Below are positions 13,881 to 58,809 of a stretch of DNA of 64,000 nt, piece by piece. The stretch is taken from the NCBI GenBank assembly GCA_964592745.1, contig CAZQFL010000008.1, forward strand, positions 747-64,746, in the 5' to 3' direction. The DNA is from an uncultured Desulfurococcaceae archaeon. Lineage in GTDB: Archaea; Thermoproteota; Thermoprotei_A; Sulfolobales; NBVN01. Within the stretch, counting starts at the first letter, position 1, and each line of letters begins with the position of its first letter. The position numbers were made by a program, and so were the translations under genes. The notes beneath the pieces are model-generated. The model saw only the letters and a list, made by a program, of their open reading frames with translations, did no database searches and was not told the origin of the DNA.

Positions 13881-15149
13881 CTAATACAAATCTAGTGGAT
13901 TAACTAATTTAACATTAACTATTTCACCTGCCTCATAGCCCTCAACATCAGGTGGTATTACCACTACTCCATTACCTCTTATCAATGTAGATAGCACTCC
14001 TGACCCAGTAATCCTTAAAGGTTCAGCACATACTTCATTGCCGCATTTAAATACCTTAACCCTGGCATACGAAGTATAACCTGTAACGTTTACTAACCTC
14101 CTCACAAGTTTAGCCTTAATGTGTGGCTCCTCCATTTCCTTTATATTAAGGACCTTCTTTATGGTGGGAATGAAAATTAAGTCTAATGCTGCAAGAGCTG
14201 CTACTGGAAAACCTGATAGTACGAATACAGGTTTCCCATCAATTATTACAGCACTTGCTGGACGTCCAGGCCTTATAGCTACACCCCTAAATACTAATTT
14301 TGAGTTAGGAAGTGTTGTTAAGGTTTTTACAACTAAATCCTTCCTTCCAATACCGCTACCACCGACAGTTATAATTATATCGTGATTAATTGTTAAGTCA
14401 GATATTACGGACCTTATTTTAGCTTCATCATCAGGTAAAGGCTCAACCCTTGTTACGGAGACATACTTACGATTTCTTAGGTAAGATGATATTAAGTAGG
14501 ATGTACCTTCATATATCTTACCCGGTAATGGCGGTTTAGGTTCTTCTGGCTCTATTAACTCAGAACCTATGGGTATTACTGCTATCCTTAACTTTCTAAA
14601 GACTTTAATGCGGGAAAAGCCGTAAGAGGCTAGTGCTGCTATATGCCACGCCTGTATGACTTCACCCTTACTAAGTATCTTTTGTGACGCCTCGAAGTCC
14701 TCACCTATTCTCGCTACATTAGCCCATTTAGCTACAGGTTTATAAACCAAGATTCTATCATTACTAATTTTCTCTGTATCTTCATACATGATTACTGCAT
14801 TAGCTCCCTTAGGTAAAGGTGCCCCTGTAGAGATCTCAACTGCTGTAAAGGGCTCTAACTCTGGTAAATTCTCAGGACTTGAGCCTATATCTATTGAGCC
14901 TATGACTCTTAACTCTATGGGATTAGTATGTGACGCACCGTACGTATCCTCTGCTCTAACAGCATAACCATCAACAACGGACTTATTAAAATAGGGTAAA
15001 CTGTAGGGTGCATATATGTCATTAGAAGATATAAGCCCTAAAGCATCATCAAGCTTGACATTGACAACATCCAAACTTAACCTTATATTACTCTTTAATC
15101 TTTCTATAGCTTCATCAACACTCACGAGCTCCTTTAAGAACTCCCCCAT
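13881..15149 (-). CDS. moeA: Molybdopterin molybdenum/tungsten transferase MoeA
   Basis: 422 aa with MoeA signatures SVVDGYAVRAEDTYGAS, ISTGAPLPKGANAVIMYED and TVGGSGIGRKD. Confidence 0.9.
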   Translation of the reverse strand: MGEFLKELVSVDEAIERLKSNIRLSLDVVNVKLDDALGLISSNDIYAPYSLPYFNKSVVDGYAVRAEDTYGASHTNPIELRVIGSIDIGSSPENLPELEPFTAVEISTGAPLPKGANAVIMYEDTEKISNDRILVYKPVAKWANVARIGEDFEASQKILSKGEVIQAWHIAALASYGFSRIKVFRKLRIAVIPIGSELIEPEEPKPPLPGKIYEGTSYLISSYLRNRKYVSVTRVEPLPDDEAKIRSVISDLTINHDIIITVGGSGIGRKDLVVKTLTTLPNSKLVFRGVAIRPGRPASAVIIDGKPVFVLSGFPVAALAALDLIFIPTIKKVLNIKEMEEPHIKAKLVRRLVNVTGYTSYARVKVFKCGNEVCAEPLRITGSGVLSTLIRGNGVVVIPPDVEGYEAGEIVNVKLVNPLDLY

Positions 15150-15269
15150 AATCTAGCACCTAATACATCATTTTCAATATCGGAATAAAGTATTTTGAAT
15201 GTTTGAAGATCGGTATTTCATAATTTCATATATTAACTTCTTCGCTGTGATTAGGATGGTTAGGGTTTT

Positions 15270-17240
15270 ATGAGTGGTAGGAAGCTGTTTCATAAATTAA
15301 GTAGTATTGACGATGTAATTAGTAAATTATCTAAATATCTAGAGCTAAAACCTAAGGGTATTGAGTATGTAAATCTAGATGAAGCTCTTAATAGAGTCTT
15401 AGCTGAAGACATATATTCACCACTTGATTACCCACCATTTGATAGATCTGAGGTTGATGGTTATGCTGTTAGAGCAGAGGATACGTACGGTGCTGATGAG
15501 GAACACCCTATAAGGCTTAAGCTTATAGGGTATGTGGAGGTAGGTCAAGTACCTAAATGTGAAGTTATTAAAGGTACTGCTGTGGAAGTTGCAACTGGAG
15601 CATTAATACCTAAAGGAGCTAATGCAGTAATTATGGAGGAATATACCCATAAGGTTGGTAATGAAGTCTTAGTGTATAGGTATGTAGCACCTGGGGAGAA
15701 TATAGCATTAACATCCTCAGATATTTCGATGGGTGACTTAGTATTAAGGAAGGGAACTAAGTTAGAGCCTTACCATATAGCTCTCTTAGCTGGTTTAGGT
15801 GTGGGAAGAGTTAAGGTCTATAGGAAGGTTAAGGTTGCTGTATTTTCAACGGGTAATGAGGTTATTAAACCAGGTGAGCCGCTTAAGCTGGGAATGATTT
15901 ATGATTCAAATAGCTACTACTTAATAAGTGCTTTACGAAAGCTAGGTGCTGAAGCTGAATTTGTTACACATCTACCTGATAACTATGATTTAATGCTTAA
16001 GGAACTATCTAGAGCACTAGATAAATATGACGTGATAATTACAAGCGGAGGTACGTCTGCTGGAATAGGTGATCTAACTTATAAAGTTTTTGACTCACTC
16101 GGTAATCCTGGCGTAGTAATTCATGGCTTAAAGGTTAAACCAGGAAAACCCACAGTGTTTGCTGTGGTTAATGATAAGTTACTTATAGGTATGCCTGGCT
16201 TTCCATTATCATGTACTATGGTATTCCATAAGGTTGTTAGACCTATAATAGCAAGGCTGTTAGGTATTGAGGTTATTGATGATGTAAGTGTTAAGGCTGT
16301 GCTACCCTATAGATTAAGAGTAGGTAAGGGTCGCTCATGGCTCATACCTGTTTCATTAGTTAGTGATGGTAAGAAGCTAATAGCATATCCGGTAACCTTC
16401 TCATCAGGGTCTATAGCTGCTTTAACTTACGCGGACGGGTACATCTACGTAAGCGAAGATAAAGAGCTACTAATGGAAGGTGAAGAAGTCAATGTCTATC
16501 TATTTAAGGACTCAATAAAAATACCTGAATTAACGATCATAGGAAGTCATGATATAGCACTATGGAGGATATTAGTAAGATCAGGACTCATAACCAAGTC
16601 CAAGGTACTACACACGGGTTCACTAAGAGGATGGTATGCTGTAAAGAATGGTGAAGCAGACATAGCTCCTACACATCTTCTTGACGAGAAAACCGGAGAG
16701 TATAATATTCCATTTCTTAGTAAGATGAGACTCAAGGGAGCAGCAGTAATAATTCGAGGTTATAAAAGAAGAATAGGATTCATAGTTGCTAAGGGTAACC
16801 CTAAAGGAATATATACATTTAAGGATTTACTCAGGAATGATGTAATCTTTGTTAATAGGGTTAAAGGTTCAGGTATTAGAGTTTTTATAGATCTTCAACT
16901 TAAGAAACTATCTAAACAGCTAGGGTTAAAATTTAGTGACCTCACATCCAAAATTAATGGCTACAATTATGAAGTAAAGACCCATACAGCAGTAGCAGCA
17001 GCTGTAGCACAGGGCAGGGCCGATGTAGGTATTGCTGCTGAAATAGCTGCGAGAATGTATGATTTGGAGTTCATACCTCTAGCTACGGAGATCGTAGACT
17101 TTCTAATTAGGAAGGATAGATTAGCTAAGAAAAGCGTTGCAGAATTCATAAACATTATGAGAAGCGATATTGTTAAAGAGCTATTGAATGAGTTACCAGG
17201 TTATGAAACCCTTAAGGATACCGGAAAGATTTTTGAGTAA
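15270..17240 (+). CDS. moeA: MoeA fused to a C-terminal periplasmic-binding-protein-like (PBP-like) domain
   Basis: The N-terminal ~410 aa is a second MoeA (SEVDGYAVRAEDTYGAD, TSGGTSAGIGD). The C-terminal ~240 aa (ELTIIGSHDIAL...GEADIAPTHLL...GRADVGIAAE) looks like a type-2 PBP / LysR-substrate-like anion-binding fold. Confidence 0.85.
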   Translation: MSGRKLFHKLSSIDDVISKLSKYLELKPKGIEYVNLDEALNRVLAEDIYSPLDYPPFDRSEVDGYAVRAEDTYGADEEHPIRLKLIGYVEVGQVPKCEVIKGTAVEVATGALIPKGANAVIMEEYTHKVGNEVLVYRYVAPGENIALTSSDISMGDLVLRKGTKLEPYHIALLAGLGVGRVKVYRKVKVAVFSTGNEVIKPGEPLKLGMIYDSNSYYLISALRKLGAEAEFVTHLPDNYDLMLKELSRALDKYDVIITSGGTSAGIGDLTYKVFDSLGNPGVVIHGLKVKPGKPTVFAVVNDKLLIGMPGFPLSCTMVFHKVVRPIIARLLGIEVIDDVSVKAVLPYRLRVGKGRSWLIPVSLVSDGKKLIAYPVTFSSGSIAALTYADGYIYVSEDKELLMEGEEVNVYLFKDSIKIPELTIIGSHDIALWRILVRSGLITKSKVLHTGSLRGWYAVKNGEADIAPTHLLDEKTGEYNIPFLSKMRLKGAAVIIRGYKRRIGFIVAKGNPKGIYTFKDLLRNDVIFVNRVKGSGIRVFIDLQLKKLSKQLGLKFSDLTSKINGYNYEVKTHTAVAAAVAQGRADVGIAAEIAARMYDLEFIPLATEIVDFLIRKDRLAKKSVAEFINIMRSDIVKELLNELPGYETLKDTGKIFE

Positions 17241-17341
17241 GTATTGATACGTTAAATCACGATTTATGTAAGGGTGCTAAATCCGCACTCTCATATACTT
17301 ATTACCTGAAAACTTTATGATGAAATTAAAGCAAAGTATAA

Positions 17342-18721
<1,380 letters not shown>

Positions 18722-18729
18722 GGTTACTC

Positions 18730-18735
18730 TTTTTT
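18730..18735 (+). terminator. T-run candidate archaeal terminator after the aminotransferase gene
   Basis: CTTTTTTATT begins 9 nt after the stop codon. Oligo-T tracts act as archaeal termination signals. Confidence 0.3.
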
Positions 18736-18760
18736 ATTAAAATTACTTAGAATTAGTTAG

Positions 18761-20611
18761 GTGACTTCTATGAAGGGTTGGAATGGTAGAGGTTTACTCA
18801 TAGATTTAAGTGAGAGGAAATTCAAGTATTTCGATATTGATGTAACAATCCTTAAAGAATACATCGGTGGTAGAGGTCTAGCAATAAGGCTATTATGGGA
18901 TTTAAATCCTGTAGGTGTTGACCCTCTCTCACCTGATAACCACCTAATATTTGCTGTAGGTCCGTTAACAGGCTATCCTTTACCCTCGTCAGGTAAGCTC
19001 GTTGTGGCGTCGAAATCGCCTTTAACAGGAGGTTATGGTGACGGTAATATTGGTGTTAAAGCAGCTGTTGAGATGAGGAAGGCTGGTATAGATGCACTCA
19101 TACTTAAGGGTAGAGCAGAGAAACCTACACTTATCCATATAACTAGTAAGGGTGTAGAATTCATTAATGCTGATGATTTATGGGGGCTTACAACATATGA
19201 TGCTGAGGATAGAATACGTAAAGTATATGGTAAGAACGTCGGTGTATTACTAATAGGACCTGCTGGTGAGAACTTAGTAAGATATGCAACAGTAGTTGCT
19301 GAGTATGGAAGATCCGGTGGGCGTCCTGGTATGGGAGCTGTTATGGGCTCTAAGAATGTTAAGGCGATTGTTATTGAAGGAGATAAACTTCCTGAACCTC
19401 ATGATCCAGCAAAACTTAGAGAGTTAGGTGCTGAAGCTTATAGGAAGGTTAAGGAATCACCAAACTATGGTTTCTGGATGAGGCAAGGAACTATGGCAAC
19501 AATAGAGTGGTCCCAAAAAGCTTCAGTATTACCTACATACAATTTCAGCGAGGGTGTATTTGACTATGCAGACAAGATAAGTGGTTACGTAATGGAATCT
19601 AAGAGAGTACTACAGAAGGGATGCCCACTCTGTAACATGCCATGCGGTCATACAGTCAAGTATGGTGTAAGTGAGGAGGGCATTGAAGGTAAGGCTGAAT
19701 TAGACTATGAGAATGTGGCTATGCTGGGATCGAACTTAGGTATCGGTGATTTAGATAAGGTTTCACATCTAAATAGGCTTGCAGATGAGTATGGTATCGA
19801 TACCATAAGCCTCGGTAATGTCTTAGGCTTTACTATGGAAGCAACAGAGAAAGGTATCATAAAGGATGAAGGTATTGAGTGGGGCGATTTTAAGGGAGCT
19901 ATTGAATTGATCAGAAAAATAGTATTTAGAGAGGGTATAGGGGAAATACTATCATTGGGTGTTAGGGAGGCATCTAAGAGGTTAGGTAAGGATTCATACA
20001 AGTTCGCTATGCAGGTTAAGGGACTTGAAATATCTGCTTATGACTGTCATGCAGCACCGGCCATGGCACTAGCTTACGGTACTTCACCTATAGGTGCTCA
20101 TCACAAGGATGCTTGGATTATTGCTTACGAAGTACAAACAGATAGGTTCGCTTATAGTGAGGAGAAGGTTAAGAGGCTTATATGGCTACAGAACGTTAGG
20201 GGAGGAGTATTCGAGTCATTAGTTACTTGTAGGTTACCATGGGTTGAGGTGGGTCTCGACCTAGACTTCTATCCTAAGCTATTACAAGCAGCTACTGGTG
20301 TGACTTATACATGGGACGATCTAGAACTAGTTGCTAATAGGATATATGCGTTAATCAGAATGTTTTGGATTAGAGAATACAGAGCAGCAGGTATTGAGTG
20401 GGGTAAACACTTAGACTACCCACCAGATAAGTGGTTTGAGAGACCATTAACTAAGGGTCCATTAGCTGGAGCTAAGTTGGATAGGGAGAAATACGACTCA
20501 ATGTTAATGAAGTATTACGAATTAAGAGGATGGGATAAGAGAGGCATACCTAAACGCGAAACTTTAGAGAAATTAAACCTAAGGTTTACCTTGAAGTATA
20601 TTACCTCATAA
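18761..20611 (+). CDS. aor: Aldehyde:ferredoxin oxidoreductase (tungstopterin AOR family)
   Basis: 616 aa with the AOR N-terminal domain (YIGGRGLAIRLLW, GPLTG) and the Fe-S/pterin region KGCPLCNMPCGH. Overall length and pattern match the AOR family. ATG 18770 is an alternative start. Confidence 0.9.
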   Translation: MTSMKGWNGRGLLIDLSERKFKYFDIDVTILKEYIGGRGLAIRLLWDLNPVGVDPLSPDNHLIFAVGPLTGYPLPSSGKLVVASKSPLTGGYGDGNIGVKAAVEMRKAGIDALILKGRAEKPTLIHITSKGVEFINADDLWGLTTYDAEDRIRKVYGKNVGVLLIGPAGENLVRYATVVAEYGRSGGRPGMGAVMGSKNVKAIVIEGDKLPEPHDPAKLRELGAEAYRKVKESPNYGFWMRQGTMATIEWSQKASVLPTYNFSEGVFDYADKISGYVMESKRVLQKGCPLCNMPCGHTVKYGVSEEGIEGKAELDYENVAMLGSNLGIGDLDKVSHLNRLADEYGIDTISLGNVLGFTMEATEKGIIKDEGIEWGDFKGAIELIRKIVFREGIGEILSLGVREASKRLGKDSYKFAMQVKGLEISAYDCHAAPAMALAYGTSPIGAHHKDAWIIAYEVQTDRFAYSEEKVKRLIWLQNVRGGVFESLVTCRLPWVEVGLDLDFYPKLLQAATGVTYTWDDLELVANRIYALIRMFWIREYRAAGIEWGKHLDYPPDKWFERPLTKGPLAGAKLDREKYDSMLMKYYELRGWDKRGIPKRETLEKLNLRFTLKYITS

Positions 20612-20643: not shown

Positions 20644-21741
20644 TCACGTAACTACGCTATCAAGCTCTCCTCTTTCAATAGCTAACTTAATTTCACGTGC
20701 TATTCTCCTACCGGTACTCATGGGTTCATCCCAGTAAAGGAATGAGTACGGACTTCCCTGTATGTACAGATTTGTACCGGCAACGATCCTTCCTGAAAAT
20801 TCAAAGATCTTAATATTTAAATTATCCTCAATTATACCTTCAAGACAGAATGGACCTATAATACCTGGTGGTAAGAGTTCTCTAGTCACTTTAACGAATC
20901 TTAAACCATAATCATAGACTTTATAAAGTAGGCTCTCCCTTAACACCATGGGTATGTTACCTACGACAACGAATGATGTCTCAATACCTAATCTCTCTAA
21001 CACGTTGTGCTTAAGCCTCCTTAAACCATCAACGTTAGATTCATACCTTATATCAGCACCTAAGATCTCAAGTCTATTAAATATGGGGCTGAAGAAGAAG
21101 TGAAAGTATGCTGGTACACCTACTATATACTCCTGAATTAACGCATCACTTAGTTTATTTATTAAACCTTGATTAATAGCTCTTTCGATACCCTCAATAA
21201 TTTCGTCCTTAGATAATGCTAAGAAGTACCCTTTACCCCCCTTAGCTCCGGGTAACTTAACTATCACTGGACCATTGATTTCCTCATCTAAACTATAATG
21301 CTTAGGTGTAGGTATGCCGGCCTTAGCTAGAAGATCCATCTTTAAGTGCTGATTAGCTTCAACTCTAAATATTGATCTAAGACCGAAGAGTGGTATCTCA
21401 ATATTTTCGGCACAATCAAGTCCTACATATTCTACAAAACTACCATGAGGAATAAATATTGAATTTAATTCAATAAGTTTCTTGACAATTTGCTCCTTAC
21501 ATAGATCACTCCACTTATTAACTACTATGAAGAAGTCTATGAGGTGTTTAAATTGCTCGTAAAACTGTCTTCTATCCTCAGTAATTATCAGTGCAGTTCT
21601 AAAACCCTCCTTCTTAGCTCCGTGAACTAGTTGAAGTGCTGAATGACTCGCTAAGGTTGCTACAGTTATTCTGTCAAGATCATACCCGGCAATAACCTTT
21701 CTGATACTTACACCCACATACACACCCAAGATCCTATCCAT
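20644..21741 (-). CDS. purP: 5-formaminoimidazole-4-carboxamide ribonucleotide (FAICAR) synthetase PurP, copy 1
   Basis: ATP-grasp protein with the N-terminus [25 protein letters not shown], characteristic of archaeal PurP. It is paralogous to ORF 32552-33664 and divergent from purC. Confidence 0.85.
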
Positions 21742-21767
21742 TACCTAATTTATTAAAATTATCACCT

Positions 21768-21807
21768 AATTAACATATTTATGTAAATTTACATAAATAT
21801 GTTAATT
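21768..21807. promoter_or_regulatory. Perfect 40-bp palindrome in the purP/purC divergent promoter region (candidate operator)
   Basis: AATTAACATATTTATGTAAA|TTTACATAAATATGTTAATT. I checked the arms base by base and they are exact reverse complements. With one bulged T the arms extend to CCT/AGG (21765-21811). The palindrome overlaps the expected purP TATA position. Confidence 0.6.
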
Positions 21808-21828
21808 TAGGAGAGAAGAGACTCAGTG

Positions 21829-21835
21829 TTTATAA
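21829..21835 (+). promoter_or_regulatory. TATA-box candidate for the purC operon
   Basis: TTTATAA lies 34 nt upstream of the GTG start of purC. Confidence 0.4.
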
Positions 21836-21868
21836 CCCCTGCTTCGTGAGTTAACATGTGAGAGAGCC

Positions 21869-22612
21869 GTGTATACTCATACTTATATACTCATCTATGA
21901 AGGTAAGAGTAAACGTATTTATGTAAAAAACCAGGATGAGCTTATTTTGGAGTTCAAGGATGAAGTAACAGCTAGAGACGGGGCTCTTAAATCTTTTATA
22001 AGAGGTAAAGGAATAATCAATGCTAGAGTCTCAGCATATTTCTTCTCAATATTAAATGAAAAAGGCATAGATACACATTTCCTAAACTATGATGGAGCTA
22101 GGAGAATGACTGTTAAGAAGTTAAGAATGTTACCTCTTGAAGTAATCGTTAGGAATTATGCTTATGGATCACAGCTCAAGAGAATGCCCTTACTTAAGCC
22201 TTTACAAGAACTTAACCCACCAGTTGTAGAGTTTCACTATAAAGATGACTCACTTCACGACCCCCTAATAATTGTGGATGACATAATAAACTCAGGAATA
22301 GCAACTCATGATGAGCTAAACTTCATAATTAAGACCTCACTAAGAATTAACAATATACTACGTGGAATCTTCTCTGAAGCTAAGTTAAAACTCATAGACT
22401 TTAAGATAGAATTCGGTCATGATAAAGATAATAAGCTAATACTAGCTGATGAAATCTCAGGTGATACCTTCAGAGTACTTGATGAGAATGGTAAACACCT
22501 AGATAAGGAGGTCTTCAGGAGAACCGGTGACCCTAAGTTGCTAATTGATGCTTACCTAAAGTTATGTGAGAGGCTTGGAATTAAGGTGGATGATATTGAT
22601 TTTCATGGTTGA
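21869..22612 (+). CDS. purC: SAICAR synthetase PurC
   Basis: IYEGKSKRIYV...LILEFKDEVTARDG, LEVIVRNYAYGS and ILADEISGDTFR are PurC motifs. GTG start. Confidence 0.9.
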   Translation: MYTHTYILIYEGKSKRIYVKNQDELILEFKDEVTARDGALKSFIRGKGIINARVSAYFFSILNEKGIDTHFLNYDGARRMTVKKLRMLPLEVIVRNYAYGSQLKRMPLLKPLQELNPPVVEFHYKDDSLHDPLIIVDDIINSGIATHDELNFIIKTSLRINNILRGIFSEAKLKLIDFKIEFGHDKDNKLILADEISGDTFRVLDENGKHLDKEVFRRTGDPKLLIDAYLKLCERLGIKVDDIDFHG

Positions 22613-22850
22613 GGCAATCATTACTAATAAACGTAGCGTAAGAGATCCTGAAGGAGAGACCATACATAGATTCTTAGTGTTGAGAAGGGGCTACAATAGT
22701 GTTAAAGGTATTAGGACTGGTAAATACTTGCTATTTAATGTTGAAGCTTCAAGTCCTAATGAGGCATTGAGTAAGGTTAAGGAGATTTGTGAGAAGTTAA
22801 GAATATACAATCCCATTGTTCACGACATCGAGGTGAGATTACGTGCATAA
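22605..22850 (+). CDS. purS: FGAM synthase subunit PurS
   Basis: Small protein MVEAIITNKRSVRDPEGETI... typical of PurS. I use ATG 22605, which overlaps the purC stop by 8 nt. The track start at 22566 is an in-frame extension inside purC. Confidence 0.85.
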   Translation: MVEAIITNKRSVRDPEGETIHRFLVLRRGYNSVKGIRTGKYLLFNVEASSPNEALSKVKEICEKLRIYNPIVHDIEVRLRA

Positions 22851-23532
22851 GGTTGCAATAATAAAGTTTCCTGGAACTAACTGTGATGAGGATGTTTTAT
22901 GGGTTATTAAGCATGTGGCTGGACTTGACGCTAGTATCGTTTGGTATAAGAATTTCTCACTTAGTGCATGGGATGCCATCATAATACCTGGGGGCTTTAG
23001 TTTCGGTGATTGGCTTAGAGCTGGCGCTATAGCTGCTCGTACAGAAGCTATTGAGGAGTTAAGTAAGGTCTTGGATTACGGGATACCTGTTCTCGGTATA
23101 TGTAACGGGTTTCAAGTACTTGTAGAGGCAGGTCTGCTACCAGGAGCTTTGCTGCCTAACGAGAGTGGTAAGTTCATTTGTAGGTGGGTTAGAGTAAGAG
23201 TTGAAAGACCTAAGGGTCCATGGTTAAGGCTCGTTAACGATGGTGACGTACTCGATATGCCAATAGCTCATGCTGAAGGTAGGTACTACGTCGATGATGA
23301 CACCTATAACTCACTCGTAGTTAAATCGCCCTTACTTAGGTACGTTAATGGATATAATTTTAATGGGAGTTCATACGACATAGCAGGTATAGCTACACCT
23401 GATGGCTTAGTCCTAGGATTAATGCCTCATCCTGAGCGTGCATCTGAAGATGTTATAGCTCCCAGGGGATTCAAGGCTAGTGGTAAGGTAATCTTCGAGA
23501 GCTTAGCTAAATCACTTAAAGAGGGTTGGTGA
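22843..23532 (+). CDS. purQ: FGAM synthase glutaminase subunit PurQ
   Basis: KVAIIKFPGTNCDEDV, catalytic Cys context GICNGFQVLVEAGLLPG, and MPHPER. Confidence 0.9.
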   Translation: MHKVAIIKFPGTNCDEDVLWVIKHVAGLDASIVWYKNFSLSAWDAIIIPGGFSFGDWLRAGAIAARTEAIEELSKVLDYGIPVLGICNGFQVLVEAGLLPGALLPNESGKFICRWVRVRVERPKGPWLRLVNDGDVLDMPIAHAEGRYYVDDDTYNSLVVKSPLLRYVNGYNFNGSSYDIAGIATPDGLVLGLMPHPERASEDVIAPRGFKASGKVIFESLAKSLKEGW

Positions 23533-23533
23533 C

Positions 23534-25723
23534 ATGCCTTTATCAAGTGAAGAGATCGAGGCTATAAAAAAGATACTTGGTAGGGACCCAAGACCTGAAG
23601 AATTAGCTATGTTTGAGGCTCAATGGAGTGAGCACTGCTCATATAAGAGTAGTAGGAAGTTGCTTAAGCTATTACCGACTAAGAAAGATTACGTAATTCT
23701 TGGTCCAGGTAGGGATGCACCAGCAGTTGAGGTATTCCCTGGTATCTCTGTTATATTTAAGATTGAAAGTCATAATCACCCTTCAGCTGTTGACCCATAC
23801 AATGGTGCAGCAACAGGTATTGGAGGTATTGTGAGAGATATACTAACCTTAGGAGCTAAACCCATAGCATTACTAGACCTACTCTACTTAGGTAATCCAA
23901 GCAATCCACACGCTAATTGGTTAATAAGAGGTATAGTCAAGGGTATAAGCGATTACGGTAATAGAATCGGAGTACCTACAGTCGCTGGCGATACATGGTT
24001 TGACGACACATTTAACAAGCAACCACTAGTAAATGTGGCATGCGTTGGTATAGCAAGTAGCAATAAGTTAGTACTTGAAGGCCCCAAACCTGGGGACGCC
24101 ATAGTAATAATAGGTAATGCGACAGGTAAGGACGGTATTTTAGGTAGTAGTTTCGCGTCAAAGCCTCTATCCGAAGATACAGATAAGGAAATTGGAGCTG
24201 TTCAAGTAGGTGATCCGCTAACTGAGAAAGCACTTATAGATGTTCTTCAAGAGCTGACTTCAAAGTCACTTGTTAGATACATTAAGGATTTAGGTGGTGG
24301 AGGTCTAACCACGGCTGTATCTGAGAGTGCCGCTGATTACGGGTTAGGAGCTACTATCCATCTCGATAAATTACACTTAAGGGAAAAACTAACACCGTTA
24401 GAGATGCTTATCTCAGAGAGTCAAGAAAGAATGCTATTAGCCGTTGAGCCCAAGAAATTAAGTGAGGTTATCAATATTCTTAACAAGTACGACCTTGCAT
24501 ATAGCGTTATAGGTTATTTTGATAATAGCGGTAGGGTAAGAGTTTACTATAAAGGTAAGTTAGTGGCTGATGTACCTGCTAAGGAGCTAGCTAGACCTCA
24601 AGCCTTGAGAAGAGACTCAAGACCTCCTCAAGAGGCTCTTAAAGGCTTAACACCCATAGTGAGATTACCTGAGGTCGTTATCGAAGATGCGGTAGTTAAG
24701 TTAATATCATCACCTAACATCGCATCAAAGAGGTGGATCTATGAGCAATATGACCATGAAGTAGGTATTAGGACTGTCATTAAGCCTGGTCATGGAGATG
24801 CGGCAGTTCTAAGAATACTTGATGGTTCTAGAAGAGGTATCGCTGTAAAAGGTGACGCGAATCCTAGATATACATCTCTAGACCCATTCAATGGAGCAGC
24901 AAACTCCGTTGCTGAATGCTTTAGGAACCTAGTATCAGTTAATTCTACACCATTGGCCATAGTTGATGAACTTAATGCCGGAAACCCCGAGAAGCCCGAG
25001 CAATTCTGGTACTTTGAGGAAATGGTTAAGGGTATTGCATGGATGTCGAGTGAATTAGGGTTACCAGTAGTTGGTGGTAAGGTGAGCTTCTATAACGAAG
25101 ATGAGAGGGGACGTCAAATCAAGCCTACAGCTACGATCGTAGGTATTGGTAGAGTTGATGACGTATCTAAATCTACAGGTTTAGCACTTAATGAAGCTGG
25201 TAACTACATAGCTGTAGTGGGGGTTACGTACCCTGAACTGGGTGGGAGTGAGTATCTCTATAGGGTTCATGGCTTAGAGCTAGGTGAGATACCTAGACCT
25301 AGACCCGCTAGTGAGTTGAGGCATGCTGAATTCATTAGACACTTAGTAAAAGAAGGTATTGCTGCATCAGTTCACGACATTAGCGTCGGAGGATTAGTTA
25401 TAGCTGCTATTGAAATGGCTGTAGCTGGAGGTTTAGGTATAGAGCTACACGTTGATAGGATACCTACCAGGGGTACTGAACGTATTGATGAAGTACTGTT
25501 TTCAGAGACGCAAGCAAGGTACATTGTTGAGATTAAGGCCGGCAAGGTCACAGAGTTTAAGGAGTTAATTAGAAAGTATAGTATTGAAAGCAATGTCATA
25601 GGTAAGGTTCTAGGTAAGGAAGTTATAGTAATAACTAACGGTGAGAAAACTATTACCTTACTCAACCTTCCTGACATAGCCGATCTATACGATAATAGCC
25701 TTAAGAAGCTCATGGAGTGGTGA
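23534..25723 (+). CDS. purL: FGAM synthase II large subunit PurL
   Basis: 729 aa with FEAQWSEHCSYKSS, ESHNHPSAVDPYNGAATGIGGIVRD and duplicated AIR-synthase-like domains. Confidence 0.95.
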   Translation: MPLSSEEIEAIKKILGRDPRPEELAMFEAQWSEHCSYKSSRKLLKLLPTKKDYVILGPGRDAPAVEVFPGISVIFKIESHNHPSAVDPYNGAATGIGGIVRDILTLGAKPIALLDLLYLGNPSNPHANWLIRGIVKGISDYGNRIGVPTVAGDTWFDDTFNKQPLVNVACVGIASSNKLVLEGPKPGDAIVIIGNATGKDGILGSSFASKPLSEDTDKEIGAVQVGDPLTEKALIDVLQELTSKSLVRYIKDLGGGGLTTAVSESAADYGLGATIHLDKLHLREKLTPLEMLISESQERMLLAVEPKKLSEVINILNKYDLAYSVIGYFDNSGRVRVYYKGKLVADVPAKELARPQALRRDSRPPQEALKGLTPIVRLPEVVIEDAVVKLISSPNIASKRWIYEQYDHEVGIRTVIKPGHGDAAVLRILDGSRRGIAVKGDANPRYTSLDPFNGAANSVAECFRNLVSVNSTPLAIVDELNAGNPEKPEQFWYFEEMVKGIAWMSSELGLPVVGGKVSFYNEDERGRQIKPTATIVGIGRVDDVSKSTGLALNEAGNYIAVVGVTYPELGGSEYLYRVHGLELGEIPRPRPASELRHAEFIRHLVKEGIAASVHDISVGGLVIAAIEMAVAGGLGIELHVDRIPTRGTERIDEVLFSETQARYIVEIKAGKVTEFKELIRKYSIESNVIGKVLGKEVIVITNGEKTITLLNLPDIADLYDNSLKKLMEW

Positions 25724-25728
25724 TTAAA

Positions 25729-27105
25729 ATGTGCGGCATAGCTGCATATGTAGGCAGCAGCGATGTTAGCGACATAGTACTTGAATTGTTGATTGAACTT
25801 CAGCATAGAGGTCAGGAATCTGCAGGTATTGCCTTAGTAACTTATCAAGGACATATGAATGTTATCAGAGGTAGAGGTTTAGTATTTGATGTTTTAACAC
25901 CCGATACTTTAGAGGGACTTAAAAATAAGGGTAATATATTTGCAGGAATTGGTCATGTAAGATACTCAACTAGTGGTGGTTTTCTCGATTCCGTACCCCA
26001 ACCATTCGCTGTTGGTGATGGATTTAAGATAGCGATAGCATTCAATGGTACTATAGCTAATTACGTACAATTAGCTAGGAGTTTAGGTTTAAAGAAAGCA
26101 TTAAATGATACACATGTCTTAGCTGAAACCATCTACAGACTTACAAAGGAATACCATGGAGATGTCGTTGAAGCGTTACGTGAACTCCCTAACTACGTAA
26201 TAGGTAGCTATAGTATGGTAGTATTAACAACAGAGCCTAGACTCATAATAGCACGTGATCCTAGAGGTTTTAGACCTCTTGCATATGTATTTAATGACTC
26301 ACTATACGTAGCATCTGAGACTGCCGCTCTCAATGTAGTTGCAGGTGATATGTGGAGGGAAGTTAGTCCTGGTGAAATAATATCATTTGATGGATTTTCT
26401 TTAGAGAGGAGTAGGGTTAGAACATCCGTAACACCAACCCCATGTATATTTGAGTACGTCTACTTTGCTAGACCTGACACGGTATTTAATGGTGTGTCAA
26501 TTTATGAAGCACGTATCAGAATGGGTATTGAGTTAGCTAAGACTTCATCTGTTGATGCGGATGTGGTCATACCCGTACCTGAAAGTGGTAGATATGCTGC
26601 CATGGGGTATAGTAGAGCTTCGGGAATTCCCTTAGAGGAGGGTCTCTTCGTTAATAGATACCTCGGTAGAGGCTTCATAATGCCACCAATAATACGTAGG
26701 AAAGTATCTGAGTTGAAGTATGGTGTCGTTAGAAGAGTTATTGAAGGTAAGAGAGTCGTCCTTGTAGATGATTCAATAGTTCGTGGAACAACCATGAAGA
26801 GCCTCATACTTAAGCTTAGAAACTCAGGTGCTAGAGAAGTTCATGTAAGAATAGCTAGTCCACCATTCAAGTATCCTTGCTTCATGGGTATAGACATAGC
26901 TTCTAGAAGGGAGCTACTCATTAATAGGTCTAGGAGTATTGATGAAATGGCTAAGTATATGGGAGCTGACAGTTTAGGCTATAATACGTTAGGAGGCTTA
27001 ATGAGAGCTGTAGGCTTAGTAAGTGTTTGTCATGCATGCTTTTCAGGCTTATACCCATTCCCCGGACTAAATGCTGAGAAACTCGAAAAGATTTTTTCAA
27101 GGTGA
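25729..27105 (+). CDS. purF: Amidophosphoribosyltransferase PurF
   Basis: The start is set at the Met preceding the obligatory N-terminal nucleophile Cys (MCGIAAYVG). Other motifs: LQHRGQESAGIA, PRPP loop VVLVDDSIVRGTT, and Fe-S Cys residues (CIFEYVYFARPD, YPCFMGID, CHACFSG). Confidence 0.9.
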   Translation: MCGIAAYVGSSDVSDIVLELLIELQHRGQESAGIALVTYQGHMNVIRGRGLVFDVLTPDTLEGLKNKGNIFAGIGHVRYSTSGGFLDSVPQPFAVGDGFKIAIAFNGTIANYVQLARSLGLKKALNDTHVLAETIYRLTKEYHGDVVEALRELPNYVIGSYSMVVLTTEPRLIIARDPRGFRPLAYVFNDSLYVASETAALNVVAGDMWREVSPGEIISFDGFSLERSRVRTSVTPTPCIFEYVYFARPDTVFNGVSIYEARIRMGIELAKTSSVDADVVIPVPESGRYAAMGYSRASGIPLEEGLFVNRYLGRGFIMPPIIRRKVSELKYGVVRRVIEGKRVVLVDDSIVRGTTMKSLILKLRNSGAREVHVRIASPPFKYPCFMGIDIASRRELLINRSRSIDEMAKYMGADSLGYNTLGGLMRAVGLVSVCHACFSGLYPFPGLNAEKLEKIFSR

Positions 27106-28391
27106 TAGTTATGGGTGGTCTCTTAGCCCTATATGCGTTTGATGACCTATGGAACCTATCTAACCACGTATACTATGGATTGACAGCTCTAGATCATAGA
27201 GGCTCAGAAAAATATGTGGCTTGCACTATAGGTAATGGTAAAGTTAAATGTTATAAAGGTAGTAAAGAGAGGATTTCCAAAGAAATTACAACACCTCTAG
27301 CAATTGCTGCAACATACAGTAATGAGGATAGGGATATTTACCTAGGTACCTATTCCACCAATGACTTAGAGTTCGTCATGATGGGGGATAGATACTCTAA
27401 AATAATGGATGTAGTGGGCGAAGAGGTTGCCTCAAGATTAAGCTCATCAAATACTCCAATAGCTAATAAAGTATTGTCAGCATTTAAGGAAGTACTTGAT
27501 GAGTTCAAAGATAAAGACATACCATCATTCATAGCTATCACAAGTAAGGGTGAAATTCTAGCTTATAGGAGTAATATAGGTTTAACCTCCCTAACTCTTG
27601 GAGGCTATGGTTTTGATTTAGCATTAATATCCTCCGAGTCAAGAGCTATAGATATACTCGGTGGTGAGGTAAGAAAATGGTTAAGACCTAATGAATTACT
27701 ATACTTATCGAAATATGCTGTCAAGAATGTACGGGTTAATGGTAATGGTGTGGAGCATTTATGCGCATTCGAGCTTCTATACATGGCTAGACATGACTCA
27801 ATAGTTGATGGTGTAAGTGTCTATGAATTCAGGAAGTTTTTAGGAAGTATATTAGCTAAGAATCTAAACGCTAATGTAGATATAGTCGTTGGTGTCCCCG
27901 AGACCGCAATACCTTATGCTGTAGGTCTTGCACAAGCAATTAACAAGCCATTTGAAATAGGGTTTGTGGGTACAGGTAGGCATATGAGGTCAGCTTTAAG
28001 GATAGATCCTCTTCAGAAGCTCATAGCAATACACCTCAAGATGAACCCCGTGGTTCATGTACTTGAAGGTAAGAGGGTAGCTTTAGTTGATGATAGCATG
28101 GTTACTGGGGCTACAATGAAGACTGTTAGTCAAATATTAAGGTATAGGGTTGGTGTTGAGGAATTACATGTAGTTATAGCTAGTCCACCTCTAATAAGGA
28201 GCTGTCCTTATAAGCTCATGCCAATAGATGTTAAGAGTCTCTTAGCAGCTAATTTAGATACTGAAAATGCTGTAAAGTATCTTGAGGTAGACTCACTAAC
28301 TTGGATTAAACCAGAGGTAATAAGTGAGGTTGCTAGATCATTTAACATAAGGCTTTGCGGGAAGTGCTTTGGTGTGGATTTTGTTGGGTGA
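27102..28391 (+). CDS. PurF paralogue lacking the N-terminal catalytic Cys
   Basis: N-terminus is MIVMGGLLALYAF, with Gly where PurF has Cys1, and LDHRGSEKYVAC replaces LQHRGQESAGI. It retains the PRTase loop VALVDDSMVTGATMKT and the cluster-type Cys contexts (CAFELLYMARHDS, SCPYKLMPID, CGKCFG). Confidence 0.75.
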   Translation: MIVMGGLLALYAFDDLWNLSNHVYYGLTALDHRGSEKYVACTIGNGKVKCYKGSKERISKEITTPLAIAATYSNEDRDIYLGTYSTNDLEFVMMGDRYSKIMDVVGEEVASRLSSSNTPIANKVLSAFKEVLDEFKDKDIPSFIAITSKGEILAYRSNIGLTSLTLGGYGFDLALISSESRAIDILGGEVRKWLRPNELLYLSKYAVKNVRVNGNGVEHLCAFELLYMARHDSIVDGVSVYEFRKFLGSILAKNLNANVDIVVGVPETAIPYAVGLAQAINKPFEIGFVGTGRHMRSALRIDPLQKLIAIHLKMNPVVHVLEGKRVALVDDSMVTGATMKTVSQILRYRVGVEELHVVIASPPLIRSCPYKLMPIDVKSLLAANLDTENAVKYLEVDSLTWIKPEVISEVARSFNIRLCGKCFGVDFVG

Positions 28392-28397
28392 GTTGCA

Positions 28398-29894
28398 ATG
28401 AAGGTGTTACTCATAGGATCAGGTGGTAGGGAGCACGCAATTGCGTTAATGATCTCTAGAAGTACTTACAATCCTAAACTCTATGTGGTATCAGATCATA
28501 ATAATCCAGGACTATCCAGGATAGCTAGGAGTACTGGCGGTAAGCTATATAGAGCTAAGACCACGAATCCGCAAGAAGTACTTAAGGTTGCGAAAGAAGT
28601 ATCTCCTGACGTAGTAGTCATAGGTCCTGAGGAACCGCAATTCGCTGGAGTTCCTGACCTACTACGTGATAAGGGCTTCAGTGTATTTGGTGCTAGTTCT
28701 CGATGTGCTGAGATAGAGAGGAGTAAGGTGTTTGCTAGAACTCTCATGTGGAAGTATTCTATACCTGGTAGGTTATACTTCAGAGCTTTCTCATCTCTTG
28801 AGGAGGCACGTAAGTTTGTTGAGTATGCTGGTGACGTAGTTGTGAAGCCTGCAAGACAGGTTGGTGGTAAGGGTGTTAAGGTGCTACGTGAAAATCAAGC
28901 GTACTTATTGGAGGAATATCGTGATGTTAAGAAGGACTTCGTCGTGAAGCTCTTTAAAGAGATGACTAAGTATGTTGATATAGATGCTAAGGTGCTCATA
29001 GAGCAGAGAGTTGAAGGTGTTGAGTACACAGCAATGACGGTAACTGATGGTAGCTACGTACTAGCTCTCCCATTAGTTCAGGATCATCCACATGTTTATG
29101 AGTATGACATAGGTCCTGAAACCGGAGGTATGGGTAGTATATCTGGTCCTGGCTGGGTCTTACCATTCATAGAAGTTGATGAGTTTAAGAGAACTATCGA
29201 AATAATCGATAATGTTGTTAAGGCTTTGCAAACTGAGGTAAAGGATAGATATGTAGGTGCTTTAGCAGGTCAAATGATGCTTACAGCATTGTGGGGTCCT
29301 ACAGTTATTGAGTTTTACAGTAGGTTTGGCGATCCTGAGATATCCAATATGGTTCCGGTAATCACTAGTGACTTCTTAGAGATGATTGAAAGAACCGTTG
29401 ATGGTAGATTAGCAGGGTATAAGCTTGAGATTAGGGATGACGTAGCGGTAGTAGTTAAAGCAGTTGCCCCGGCTGGTTACCCATTAAATAAGAAAGTAGC
29501 AGCTAACCACCCGGTTAGCGTTGATGAAGGTAAGATTAGGGAACTTGGCTGTACACTACTCTACGCTAGTGTTGAGGAGCTTGGAGATGGTACGTTACGT
29601 ACTCACGGATCTAGAGCATTTGAAATCGTATGCTATGATGAAAGTCACGAGAAAGCCTCTAAAAAGGCTGAACTAGCTATATCCTATATCAAATCCTTAG
29701 ATGGTTGGCCATTAATACATAGGAGTGATATAGGATCCATCGAACTCCTTAAGCAGAGACATCACCTGGCTATGCGTATTAGAAGAACCTACAAGGCTAG
29801 AGCACGTAGAGGCCTATTAGGTACTTCAATTGTATGGGTTCCGGGTAAGGGCATATTCTTTGATCCTTTCGCTTCACCTGTAATGACTAGGTGA
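28398..29894 (+). CDS. purD: Phosphoribosylamine-glycine ligase PurD
   Basis: MKVLLIGSGGREHAIA N-terminus, an ATP-grasp core, and SRFGDPE. Confidence 0.9.
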   Translation: MKVLLIGSGGREHAIALMISRSTYNPKLYVVSDHNNPGLSRIARSTGGKLYRAKTTNPQEVLKVAKEVSPDVVVIGPEEPQFAGVPDLLRDKGFSVFGASSRCAEIERSKVFARTLMWKYSIPGRLYFRAFSSLEEARKFVEYAGDVVVKPARQVGGKGVKVLRENQAYLLEEYRDVKKDFVVKLFKEMTKYVDIDAKVLIEQRVEGVEYTAMTVTDGSYVLALPLVQDHPHVYEYDIGPETGGMGSISGPGWVLPFIEVDEFKRTIEIIDNVVKALQTEVKDRYVGALAGQMMLTALWGPTVIEFYSRFGDPEISNMVPVITSDFLEMIERTVDGRLAGYKLEIRDDVAVVVKAVAPAGYPLNKKVAANHPVSVDEGKIRELGCTLLYASVEELGDGTLRTHGSRAFEIVCYDESHEKASKKAELAISYIKSLDGWPLIHRSDIGSIELLKQRHHLAMRIRRTYKARARRGLLGTSIVWVPGKGIFFDPFASPVMTR

Positions 29895-31114
29895 TATATA
29901 TGAAAAAGAGAGAGTATTTGTCAACACCCATGTTTGAAGGATCAATAAAGATCTTACTACTTGGTGGTGGTGAGTTAGGTAAGGAGGTAGCTATAGAGGC
30001 TCAAAGACTAGGCGTTGAGGTTACCGTTGTTGATAGGTATGACTGGGCTCCAGCAATGCATGTTGCTCATAGGAGATATGTGGTTAATTTAGGTGATGCT
30101 GGAGCTTTAAAAGCCATAATTAGGAGGGAGAAGCCTGACGTCATAATACCTGAGATTGAAGCAATAGCTGTTGAAGCTCTTAAGGAGTTAGAGAGTGAGG
30201 GCTACTTAGTCATACCTAACGCTAAAGCTATTGAGATTTCAATGAATAGAATAAAACTTAGAAGATTTGCTGCCGAAGAACTTAGTCTACCGACAACACG
30301 GTATGCCTTTGCTGAAAATCCTGATGAAGCTGTTGATGCATGTGATAAAGTTGGATATCCATGCTTGATAAAGCCTGAAATGAGTAGTTCAGGCCATGGT
30401 CATGTGAGGATTAAGGAGCCATCACCTAATAAGATAAGGGAGGCATATAACTATGCAATAAGGCATGCACGTGGTAGTAGTAAGAGAGTTATTGTTGAGG
30501 AATTCGTAGACTTAGAGGCTGAATTCACGGCGCTCTCATACAGGTATGTTGGTGATAACGGTATTAAAACTGATGTATGTGAACCCGTTGAACACTGGAG
30601 ATATGGTGAGTACCATTACATAGAGTCATGGCAGCCATCCATTAAGCCCGTATCGATAATTGATAAAGTAAAAGAGATAGGTATTAAAGTTGCTGAGGGT
30701 CTTGGAGGTCTAGGCATATTTGGTGTTGAAGTGTTCTTGACTAAGGATGGTAGAGTATTGTTTAGTGAGGTAGCACCTAGACCTCACGATACAGGTATGG
30801 TCACTATGGTTACTCAAGAACTTAGTGAATTTGCCATACATGTTAGAGCTGTCTTGGGGTTACCCATACCTAAACCAAAGGTAATATCACCTGGTGCTAG
30901 CTTAGCAATATATGTTGAGAAGGAAGGAATATGGGCACCTAAATTCTGTGGCGTCTATGATGCTTTAAGGATACCTGGTGTAGATCTTAGAGTCTTCGGA
31001 AAGCCTTTCACTTATGCTGGACGTAGAATGATGGTACTTTTAGCACGTGGTCCATCCGTTAACGAAGCAAGACGTAAGGTATGGGAAGCATCTAAGTATA
31101 TAAAGATGTGCTAA
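29891..31114 (+). CDS. purT: Formate-dependent GAR transformylase PurT
   Basis: [24 protein letters not shown], an ATP-grasp core, and [15 protein letters not shown], typical of PurT. Confidence 0.9.
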
Positions 31115-31115
31115 G

Positions 31116-31550
31116 GTGAGGGCTATGAGTAAGTGTAAAGGTAAAGTGGCAATAATTGTTGGTAGTAAGAGAGACTTAGAGTATGCTGAGAGAGCAGCTA
31201 AAGTGCTTTCAGAGCATGGCGTGGGCTACGATATCAGAGTTTTAAGTGCTCATAGAAACCCAAAGGAACTTGAGGAATACATAGTTAAGAGTGATGCAGA
31301 TATATTTATAGCAATGGCAGGTCTAGCAGCACACTTACCAGGCTTCATAGCCTCTAGGTCTGAGAAGCCCGTGATTGGTGTACCATTAAATGTTGCTTTA
31401 GGAGGTCTTGACTCATTATTAAGTATTGTGCAAATGCCCAAGGGAATTCCAGTAGCTACTGTTGGGATAAATAATCCTGAAAACGCTGCTTACCTAGCTA
31501 TAAGGATCTTGAAGTTATGCATGAAGATGTGCGGTGAGACCCGTGAGTGA
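31116..31550 (+). CDS. purE: N5-CAIR mutase-type PurE (class I signature)
   Basis: [17 protein letters not shown] (class I has SAHR, class II has SAHK), AGLAAHLPG and [16 protein letters not shown]. Confidence 0.9.
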
Positions 31551-32562
31551 GGTTTGGACATATAAAAAAGCAGGTATTGACTTATCTAAGCATAAGCTCA
31601 TGCATAAAAGAGCACTTAACGCTATTAAGGAATTAGCTAAGAAGTTAAGTATTAATGTTAAAGATCTAAGTGGTTATGCATCTTCAATAGTATATAAAGA
31701 TAGAGAGATAGTTCTCCATGTGGATGGTGTTGGAACTAAGACATTGGTTCTTCAAAGGTTGAATAAGCTTGAAGTTATAGGTTGGGACTGTGTAGCTATG
31801 AATGTTAATGATGTTGTATGCGTTGGTGCTAAACCATTAGCTCTGCTCGACTATATAGTACTTCCTGAGAGTAATGAGGAGATATTCAATAGAGTAATTA
31901 ATGGTATTATTGAGGCCTCTAGGGTAAGTAATGTAGCTATAGTAGGTGGTGAAACAGCCATCATGCCGGATCTAGTCGCTGGTGTTGATGCTGCATGCTT
32001 TGTTATGGCCGAAAGACTCTATGATATACCTAAAAGAAATTTGGATGGTCATACGATCATAGGTATAGAGAGTTGGGGCCTTCATGCTAACGGATACACA
32101 CTACTTAGGAAGATCATTGAGAGTAAATTAGGTAGTTATAGTATGAAATTGGAAGGCATAGATATTGGTGAGGAGGTAAGTAAACCAACAGCTATATACT
32201 CTAACTTAATACTTGATGCATTAAGCAGGGGATTAATATCATCAGCAACACATATAACTGGCGGTGCGTTCACGAAGTTAAAGAGGATACTTAACAGCTC
32301 CTTCGACATAATCTTAAAGATGCCTGAGCCAAAGCCTATATTCAAATTAATAGCTAAACTAGGTAACGTACCGCCGACTGAGATGTATAGAGTTTTCAAC
32401 ATGGGTATAGGAATGGTTGTTACAGCACCTAAGGATTGTGTTGAGGAGTTTATGAACTTAACCTCAAAATATGGTTTTAAATCATGGGTTTTAGGTGATA
32501 TACGTTCAGGTAAAGGTAAGATATATATCAAAACATTTACAGGTGATGTAATTGAGTACTAA
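31534..32562 (+). CDS. purM: AIR synthetase PurM
   Basis: [41 protein letters not shown] and [19 protein letters not shown]. Confidence 0.9.
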
Positions 32563-58804: not shown

Positions 58805-58809
58805 GGAAG

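Follow-up and report, generated by a model that had tools for sequence, protein, structure and literature searches.

A conserved double dyad between the divergent purP and purC genes of an uncultured Desulfurococcaceae archaeon is a probable purine-gene operator

The purP-purC intergenic region

The 64,000-nucleotide stretch analysed here (the window; positions 747 to 64,746 of contig CAZQFL010000008.1, assembly GCA_964592745.1) comes from an uncultured Desulfurococcaceae archaeon and carries a perfect 40-bp palindrome in the spacer between two divergently transcribed purine biosynthesis loci. On the minus strand lies purP (20644-21741), which encodes a formate-dependent 5-aminoimidazole-4-carboxamide ribonucleotide (AICAR) formyltransferase with DUF1246 and DUF1297 domains, and on the plus strand purC (start codon GTG at 21869) heads the 11-gene operon purC-purS-purQ-purL-purF-purF2-purD-purT-purE-purM-purP2 (21869-33664); an earlier note on this DNA had described the flanking genes in the same way, and the annotation of the window contains no purine genes beyond these. 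The palindrome contains a motif that is conserved, specific to purine-gene promoters and under purifying selection, and it is probably an operator of purine genes, with the purC operon as its main target and purP as the divergent one.

The palindrome spans 21768-21807 and consists of AATTAACATATTTATGTAAA followed directly by TTTACATAAATATGTTAATT, that is two 20-nt arms with no spacer and 100% complementarity. It extends to a quasi-palindrome at 21765-21811 (CCTAA-TTAAC...GTTAATTTAGG) whose arms reach CCT/AGG with one unpaired T, and the orthologous element at locus L001 (loci in other genomes are given L numbers throughout) is a perfect 48-bp version. Both the exact pairing of the 20 + 20 arms and their extension across a single bulged T had been reported in the earlier note and were reproduced on recomputation, as were the two occurrences of the octamer ACCTAATT (21743-50 and 21764-71), and the 12-mer said to recur at 21916-27 is indeed there, though as part of a 17/20 copy of the whole arm at 21908-27. 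The note had also asked whether long A/T palindromes are common at other promoters. In a scan of the 64-kb window with spacers of 0-6 nt the longest other perfect palindromes had arms of 9 nt, so that nothing comparable occurs elsewhere in it, and a search for the 20-mer arm allowing up to 3 mismatches gave three occurrences (0.01 expected), namely the two arms and the copy at 21908-21927.

The recognition unit is best read as an 18-bp dyad with the consensus TTAACATAwwTATGTTAA, the 40-mer being two abutting mirror-image copies of it whose centres lie 18 bp apart. Each arm is itself near-symmetric (TTAACATA-tt-TATGTaAA), with 14 of 18 positions self-complementary. Dyad 1, the purP-proximal putative operator TTAACATATTTATGTAAA (21770-21787; half-sites TTAACATA and TATGTaAA), scores 22.9 bits against a position-weight matrix of the motif, and dyad 2, the purC-proximal putative operator TTTACATAAATATGTTAA (21788-21805), starts at -81 from the purC start codon. 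Dyad 3, TAAACGTATTTATGTAAA (21910-21927; 19.0 bits), is an operator-like site within purC itself, at +41 to +58, where it spans the codons S-K-R-I-Y-V-K. In the symmetrised matrix the strongest positions are TT.AC.TA / TA.GT.AA, and the C and G of AAC/GTT are the best-conserved bases of the motif. When the window was scanned with the matrix these three sites scored 19-23 bits and everything else 11.1 bits or less; a 10-bit match at 58729 was rejected as a further site since it falls in a degraded vapC remnant.

A TATA-box candidate for purC, TTTATAA (21829-21835, plus strand), was read from the sequence 34 nt upstream of the GTG, and relatives have CTTATAT or TTTATA in the equivalent place. 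It sits inside a small palindrome, GTTTATAAC, itself within CAGTGTTTATAACCCCTG (21824-21841), which is kept across the clade of close relatives. For purP the likely TATA box is TTTTAATAAA (21749-21758, minus strand), which lies between the palindrome and the gene and is conserved in all clade members. In L004, L005 and L006 the annotated purP ATG (21741) does not lie in the reading frame, and distant PurP proteins show homology only from around codon 7-9, so that the true start is probably the GTG at 21723 or 21717. The earlier suggestion that the palindrome covers the purP TATA box is therefore doubtful, both because of the better, conserved candidate and because of the doubtful ATG, and we infer instead that the palindrome has a core promoter on either side and is upstream of each. 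The purP TATA candidate is flanked by a direct repeat, ATTACCTAATT / ATCACCTAATT (21740-21750 and 21761-21771, 21 bp apart). One C is gone from both copies in L002, and a recurrent loss of G beside dyad 1 makes the second copy resemble the first more closely; the repeat might be a second binding site or might reflect inter-repeat slippage.

Distribution of the dyad in distant relatives

The window's PurP protein shares 94, 86 and 85% identity with metagenomic proteins, and about 65% with those from metagenome-assembled genomes (MAGs) of Ignisphaera, Desulfurococcaceae and 'Sulfolobales'. A PurP-profile scan of species-representative genomes gave 80 loci, and 79 loci outside the genus-level clade of the window were used for the tests of the motif. 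With the window's own 18-mer and up to 3 mismatches as the query, a test that involves no training on the sites scored, we found 13 matches in the 5.5 kb of purC promoter zones, at 10 of 19 loci, and 4 in the 485 kb elsewhere. This is a 286-fold enrichment (binomial p = 1e-22), which is still more than 40-fold if merely ~15% of the remaining DNA is taken to be intergenic.

Where purC diverges from purP or purE in these loci, a matching dyad begins between -75 and -82 relative to the purC start, some 35-45 bp upstream of the centre of the purC TATA box, while the remaining spacer is unalignable. The loci with a dyad at this fixed position are L008-L012, L016, L017, L021, L025, L039, L040 and L059, with PurP identities of 55-66%, and examples of the dyad are TTAACGTATTTCTGTTAA (L009, L010), TTAACATATATAAGTTAA (L012), TTAACATTAATATGTAAA (L016), TTAACATAAATTTGTTAA (L040) and TTTACATATTTATGTATA (L008). 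At several loci one or two further copies are found, at distances of 37-45, 54-58 or 70 bp, and in three cases an extra dyad overlaps the divergent gene's start codon or the region where its transcription starts (purP in L040, purE in L008 and L146). The dyad is present in the purC-purE spacers of L008 (three copies) and L011, upstream of purE in L014 and L146, in the guaA-purP spacer of L037, and twice upstream of the purB-purP-purP-purA operon of a Sulfolobaceae MAG (L048). It was not found in the Acidilobaceae loci L026 and L031, in L018, or in the cultured Sulfolobaceae sampled. Judged by these positions the motif is one that tracks purine-gene promoters and not purP as such, and in the loci sampled the dyad shows both a phylogenetic footprint and a regulon-like recurrence.

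Among metagenome matches to the central 20-mer, 33 of 37 were unrelated A/T-rich DNA. We considered a mobile or viral origin and rejected it, the 18-mer having 21 scattered matches in viral contigs with neither pur context nor palindrome. An 11-mer of the left arm at 10954-64, recorded in the earlier note upstream of the C2H2 gene (at 10999), is at chance level and so gives no link to that gene: the window holds 4 such matches elsewhere, compared with 4.6 in simulation, and the 11-mer is without the outer TTAA parts of the dyad.

Conservation and concerted arm change in close relatives

The element occupies the same place in nine lineages of the genus-level clade: the window, L001, L094, L002, L117, L091, L004/L005, L121 (which ends before its second arm) and L006 (an uncultured Desulfurococcaceae archaeon genome record). 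Alignment of the orthologous spacers, the check proposed in the earlier note, thus finds it kept in 9 of 9. At fourfold-degenerate sites of purC and purP the window differs from L001 by 9-16% and from L002 or L004 by 23-38%, so that neutral DNA would be expected to show about a dozen changes over 40 bp. Across the nine lineages only one symmetric position pair of the 36-bp two-dyad core varies.

This pair changes in both arms together. Of the eight fully aligned lineages four have A and the other four G, each time in the two arms alike and with no mixed case; L121 also has G. Within the clade such both-arm changes affect 2 of 23 pairs. The purP and purC gene trees conflict on the placement of L117, so that the A/G switch has happened at least twice or there has been recombination at the palindrome. 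L117 (Ga0180301_10001598, ~2939-2974) is a mosaic, its purP side being ~91% identical to the window's group and its purC side ~86% identical to the same group and 89% to L002, which suggests a recombinant with a breakpoint at or near the palindrome.

The flanks are mirrored too, with CCTAA/TTAGG in some lineages and CTTAA/TTAAG in others. L091, L004 and L006 are 99.3-99.8% identical over kilobases, and their sole indels, a G and a C, fall at mirror positions just outside the dyads: L091, with both, has a perfect 48-bp palindrome, L004, having lost the G, is asymmetric, and L006, having lost both, has a perfect 46-bp palindrome. In template-switch mutation one arm of an imperfect inverted repeat is copied onto the other, which homogenises the arms (PMC7202029, PMC8604942). 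The series from L091 through L004 to L006 and the both-arm switch between A:T and G:C carry the signature of this process, which is known from E. coli and yeast, whereas here it is deduced from natural archaeal variants only. Dyad position 6 tolerates A, G or T among relatives, and selection for binding would not obviously require a joint switch of both arms at such a position. Given this tolerance, the symmetry that extends beyond the dyads and the mirror indels in near-clonal strains, the perfection of the palindrome is better explained as a mutational by-product of arm-to-arm template switching on a selected double operator than as the outcome of base-by-base selection. If so, the element offers a clean natural case of the arms of a regulatory palindrome evolving in concert, and a caution against equating perfect symmetry with base-by-base selection.

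The doubled dyad is limited to the window's genus-level clade. L009, which has a single dyad, has its own 44-bp palindrome around it (2925-2968; 18-nt arms, 8-nt spacer) with a different arm sequence, and its sister L010 is without the extension. It seems that long palindromes have formed more than once at this putative operator.

An operator-like site within purC

The site at +41 encodes S-K-R-(V/I)-Y-V-K, within a conserved PurC motif, and an intragenic dyad is present at the same position in at least 10 lineages. Its codons are not the preferred ones: in the window Arg is encoded by AGA or AGG in 88% of cases and by CGN in 12% (CGT 7%), and the Arg of the site uses CGT, while its Lys stays AAA (37% of window Lys codons). 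All 13 lineages in which the upstream dyad is strong have a CGN codon at this Arg; where the upstream motif is missing the position reads AGG, CTC, CTT or AAG, and in two lineages CGT. Since non-preferred codons are kept where the upstream dyad is present, the intragenic site is probably under selection at the DNA level and would be a third operator.

Alternative explanations of the palindrome

A cruciform or hairpin that itself tunes the divergent promoters, or serves as a structural signal, would have its arms kept by selection for pairing, which would suit the compensatory changes of both arms at two position pairs, the correction of indels at mirror positions, the symmetry that reaches beyond the dyads to 46-48 bp in L001, L006 and L091, and the different palindrome around the L009 dyad. 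The single strand is also predicted to fold at -16.1 kcal/mol at 37 °C (z = -9.4). However, 17 of the 20 pairs are A:T, and at 60-70 °C a stability of only about -5 to -7 kcal/mol is predicted, while the relatives are hyperthermophiles (figures for 80-90 °C are extrapolation artefacts and were not used). Distant relatives keep short imperfect dyads that are too weak for a stable hairpin, so that over this distance it is the sequence and not the long pairing that is conserved, and the +41 copy within purC stands there as a single arm. Since its place is upstream of the two predicted core promoters, the element is probably not transcribed, and Rfam gives no matches at the gathering score over the whole window, with only generic microRNA hairpins of 20-28 bits (cut-offs 81-140) at a permissive threshold. 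We regard a structural role as unlikely.

It is marginally less likely again that the palindrome is simply core-promoter DNA, that is two opposed TATA/BRE-like elements (BRE, B recognition element) bound by TBP and TFB only and giving bidirectional initiation, of purP or of an unannotated divergent transcript. Each arm does contain a TATA-like sequence (ATATTTAT / TTTATGTAAA), a leaderless purP starting at the ATG at 21741 would put its TATA box at the left edge of the palindrome, and the arm 11-mer upstream of the gene at 10999 is at the expected place of a TATA box. Nonetheless there are better, conserved TATA candidates on both sides (21749-58 and 21829-35), the motif is confined to purine-gene promoters and is not a feature of promoters generally, its most conserved bases, the C and G of AAC/GTT, are not TATA features, and one copy lies at +41 within purC and is conserved through rare codons. 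As for the possibility that the inverted duplication is recent and functionally neutral, an accident of mutation in A/T-rich spacer DNA, the doubled arrangement is indeed confined to one genus-level clade and template switching can make and perfect palindromes without selection (PMC7202029, PMC8604942), but the core is invariant bar one symmetric pair across 23-38% fourfold-site divergence and the underlying dyad is conserved at the family level and specific to purine promoters, which makes this account the least credible of the three.

Possible mode of regulation

The earlier note had taken the palindrome for a purine operator bound by a dimeric regulator. The conserved, purine-specific motif supports this reading, with the refinement that one giant dimer site gives way to two 18-bp sites and presumably two dimers. 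In the mechanism we propose, the two abutting mirror dyads would bind a sequence-specific, probably homodimeric transcription factor that controls the de novo purine genes in a clade of uncultured, apparently hyperthermophilic Thermoprotei of hot springs (Desulfurococcaceae/Ignisphaera-like). Each dyad would take one dimer, and the two dimers would be neighbours, with an offset of 18 bp or ~1.7 helical turns and hence on different faces of the helix, with a third dimer at the +41 site downstream of the purC start. The upstream sites could cooperate with the downstream one by looping or by spreading over the core promoter, such that both promoters would be off when purines are plentiful. The effector would be a metabolite of the purine pathway, and comparison with known systems suggests phosphoribosyl pyrophosphate (PRPP) or purine nucleotides. 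The doubling of the dyad is particular to the window's genus-level clade; template switching would be mainly responsible for keeping the 36-48 bp perfect, and purifying selection for keeping the dyads.

Whether such a factor represses or activates is a closer question. As a rule of thumb, archaeal sites upstream of BRE/TATA activate and those at or after the transcription start repress (PMC4158304), and by this rule the main dyad would be activating and the start-proximal and +41 sites repressing; the extra dyads at the starts in L040, L008 and L146 are likewise in a repression-type position. In B. subtilis the upstream boxes of PurR nevertheless repress, through extended occupancy (PMC8789054). 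On balance we lean slightly towards cooperative repression that sandwiches the core promoters rather than activation.

Several points weigh against an operator of this kind. The best-conserved dyad, 35-45 bp upstream of the purC TATA centre, is in what would be an activation-type position in archaea, and the spacings between sites (18, 37-45, 54-70 and 117-123 bp) give inconsistent helical phasing. No convincing candidate for the regulator gene is encoded in the window. Conservation of the intragenic site is accounted for in part by protein constraint, as the GKSKR(V/I)Y peptide is conserved. The motif is A/T-rich and TATA-like, so that promoter elements may account for some of its weak matches. 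The sites scored by the position-weight matrix were also those used to train it, an objection that the non-circular 18-mer test addresses, and the sampling covered ~0.6 Mb around purP genes rather than whole genomes.

Comparison with known regulatory systems

The regulation of purine biosynthesis in archaea is poorly known. In the literature searched there is no described purine regulator or pur operator for Thermoprotei, and a 2011 survey of archaeal purine genes noted unexplained duplications of purF and purP and shared divergent promoters with no regulator. The closest parallel is with B. subtilis, where two inverted PurBoxes just upstream of the promoter of a 12-gene pur operon each bind a dimer of PurR, whose effector is PRPP (PMC8789054). 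Both systems have paired inverted sites upstream of the core promoter of a long pur operon, and a possible further likeness is that in related Desulfurococcus MAGs the pur operon ends in a helix-turn-helix (HTH) plus phosphoribosyltransferase (PRT) protein whose PRT domain finds its best match in the PDB in PurR. The differences are that the PurBox consensus AWWWCCGAACWWT is lacking (the closest sequence within 21700-21960 departs from it at 3 of 13 positions and lies outside the palindrome), that PurBoxes are spaced while the present dyads abut, and that the present promoter is of the archaeal BRE/TATA type.

E. coli PurR, of the LacI family, also acts through a dyad operator, the 16-bp PUR box, common to dispersed purine genes, and some of its operators are intragenic (purB, purR), where they block elongation (PMC3159470), a parallel to the +41 site in purC. 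However, the PUR box ACGCAAACGTTTGCGT is unrelated in sequence (7 of 16 mismatches at best) and usually lies between -35 and -10, and no LacI-family gene was seen in the window. Within the archaea, dyad motifs have similarly been found by comparative genomics at functionally linked promoters for TrmBL1/Tgr of Thermococcales (the Thermococcales glycolytic motif, TGM) and for Halobacterium TrmB, the latter of which influences purine genes. These differ in belonging to another phylum and in responding to sugars, and their motifs TATCAC-N5-GTGATA and TACT-N7-8-GAGTA match here with 5 of 12 and 2 of 9 mismatches, respectively, at unrelated positions. An Lrp-type box (Ss-LrpB, TTGYAWWWWWTRCAA) has at least 4 mismatches, and its 15 bp with an odd-length A/T centre contrast with the even 18-bp dyad. 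Altogether the known operators compared (PUR box, PurBox, TGM, LrpB, SurR and Halobacterium TrmB) gave no meaningful match.

By analogy, the element would function in the manner of the B. subtilis PurBox pair or the E. coli PUR boxes while matching neither consensus, and it may represent an uncharacterised regulon motif. Its perfect double site, together with single-site variants from a dozen lineages, makes it a strong bait for DNA-affinity capture or electrophoretic mobility shift assays, and the position-weight matrix can be used for regulon prediction in MAGs.

Candidate regulators

The only HTH-like open reading frames (ORFs) in the window, 10999-11436 and 58060-58371 (both plus strand), were rejected as the regulator, as neither has a nearby dyad or a link to pur genes. 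The first encodes 145 aa with a weak match to a GerE-type HTH and a C-terminal C2H2-like motif (CLECEITLSNKQAAINHIKRRH), with no Pfam or NCBIfam family above threshold. The second encodes 103 aa with an N-terminal winged HTH (wHTH) and a Cys-rich segment (CRGECATCRIAKSC), adjoins a radical S-adenosylmethionine (SAM) gene, and has sub-threshold matches to TrmB, 'wHTH-PRTase associated' and FeoC.

Beyond the window we clustered the 344 non-pur ORFs around purP in the 79 loci. The recurrent neighbours were purB, purA, guaA, a flavin adenine dinucleotide (FAD) oxidoreductase and PRTs; no transcription factor recurs near purP in this set, and wider 10-kb contexts showed nothing consistent. The sole classical transcription factor near purP is an Lrp/AsnC gene at three distant, motif-negative loci, where it lies directly upstream of purP (308-787 in L051, and also in L067 and L081; one Desulfurococcales MAG and two Nitrososphaeraceae MAGs). 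Purine control may differ in these three, the dyad being absent there.

A candidate family does emerge from MAGs of Desulfurococcus sp., in which the pur operon is ordered as in the window and has at its end purB, purP and a gene for a 239-aa protein with an N-terminal HTH and a PRT domain (L150, 5116-5835; L156-L158, 10001-10720), annotated as a phosphoribosyltransferase. Against NCBIfam this protein falls just under the cut-off of 'adenine phosphoribosyltransferase PRK08558', with the B. subtilis pur operon repressor model second, and the best PDB sequence match of a homologue is PurR (1P4A/1O57, E = 5e-10). A confident AlphaFold model (mean predicted local distance difference test score, pLDDT, 90.7) has a five-helix N-terminal domain and a PRT fold, and a Foldseek search with it puts PurR at the top, level with adenine phosphoribosyltransferases (APRTs). 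An archaeal precedent for this architecture is GfcR of Haloferax volcanii, a promoter-binding regulator with an N-terminal HTH and an effector domain of PRT fold (PMC10838023). GfcR differs in that it activates sugar catabolism and belongs to a PyrE-like branch, and the NCBIfam GfcR model scores 19.8 bits on the candidate (cut-off 300).

The HTH-PRT family is narrow, being confined to MAGs of Desulfurococcales, Ignisphaera and Zestosphaera, and one member appears to be on the same contig as the motif-positive L037 (both 183,525 bp). Two findings count against this lead: no dyad was found upstream of the HTH-PRT gene in L151-L155, and the gene is absent from the window. We therefore put forward only tentatively, as something rather less than an even chance, that the dyad serves as operator for an archaeal equivalent of the Gram-positive PurR, a family of ~240-aa HTH-PRT proteins, at present annotated as 'adenine phosphoribosyltransferase', that would sense PRPP or purine nucleotides and control purC, purP, purE, guaA and purB. 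The family is nonetheless a concrete candidate, and if it is the regulator this would be the first purine regulon defined in Thermoprotei and the second independent archaeal HTH-PRT regulator after GfcR.

Other features of the window

Two genes of the operon have paralogs within the locus. purF2 (27102-28391, plus strand) is without the catalytic N-terminal Cys and starts MGG..., where the true PurF at 25717 starts MCG, and it matches the C-terminal part only of the purF model (146 bits, cut-off 350). It is conserved beside purC or purD in many relatives (purC-purF2-purD) and could be a non-catalytic or regulatory PurF paralog. The two purP paralogs are the divergent gene (20644-21741, minus strand) and the last gene of the operon (32552-33664, plus strand), a pair that is widespread in relatives and often side by side.

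Just upstream of purP, at 13881-20611, is a tungsten/molybdenum-cofactor neighbourhood with the same synteny in L004, comprising two MoeA genes (one fused to a periplasmic-binding-protein-like domain), a class III aminotransferase and an aldehyde:ferredoxin oxidoreductase. We also considered a replication origin at the palindrome and rejected it, the GC-skew trend being unchanged near 21.7 kb. Elsewhere the window holds three genes for metallopeptidases of the PmbA/TldD family (446-1843, 47697-49145 and 49142-50473), the last two adjacent. Finally, fragmented remnants of a PIN/VapC-like gene (58482-58804) come after an AbrB/VapB-like antitoxin ORF (58810-59067), and together these (58482-59067, minus strand) are apparently a decayed toxin-antitoxin pair in an otherwise gene-poor gap of 850 bp.

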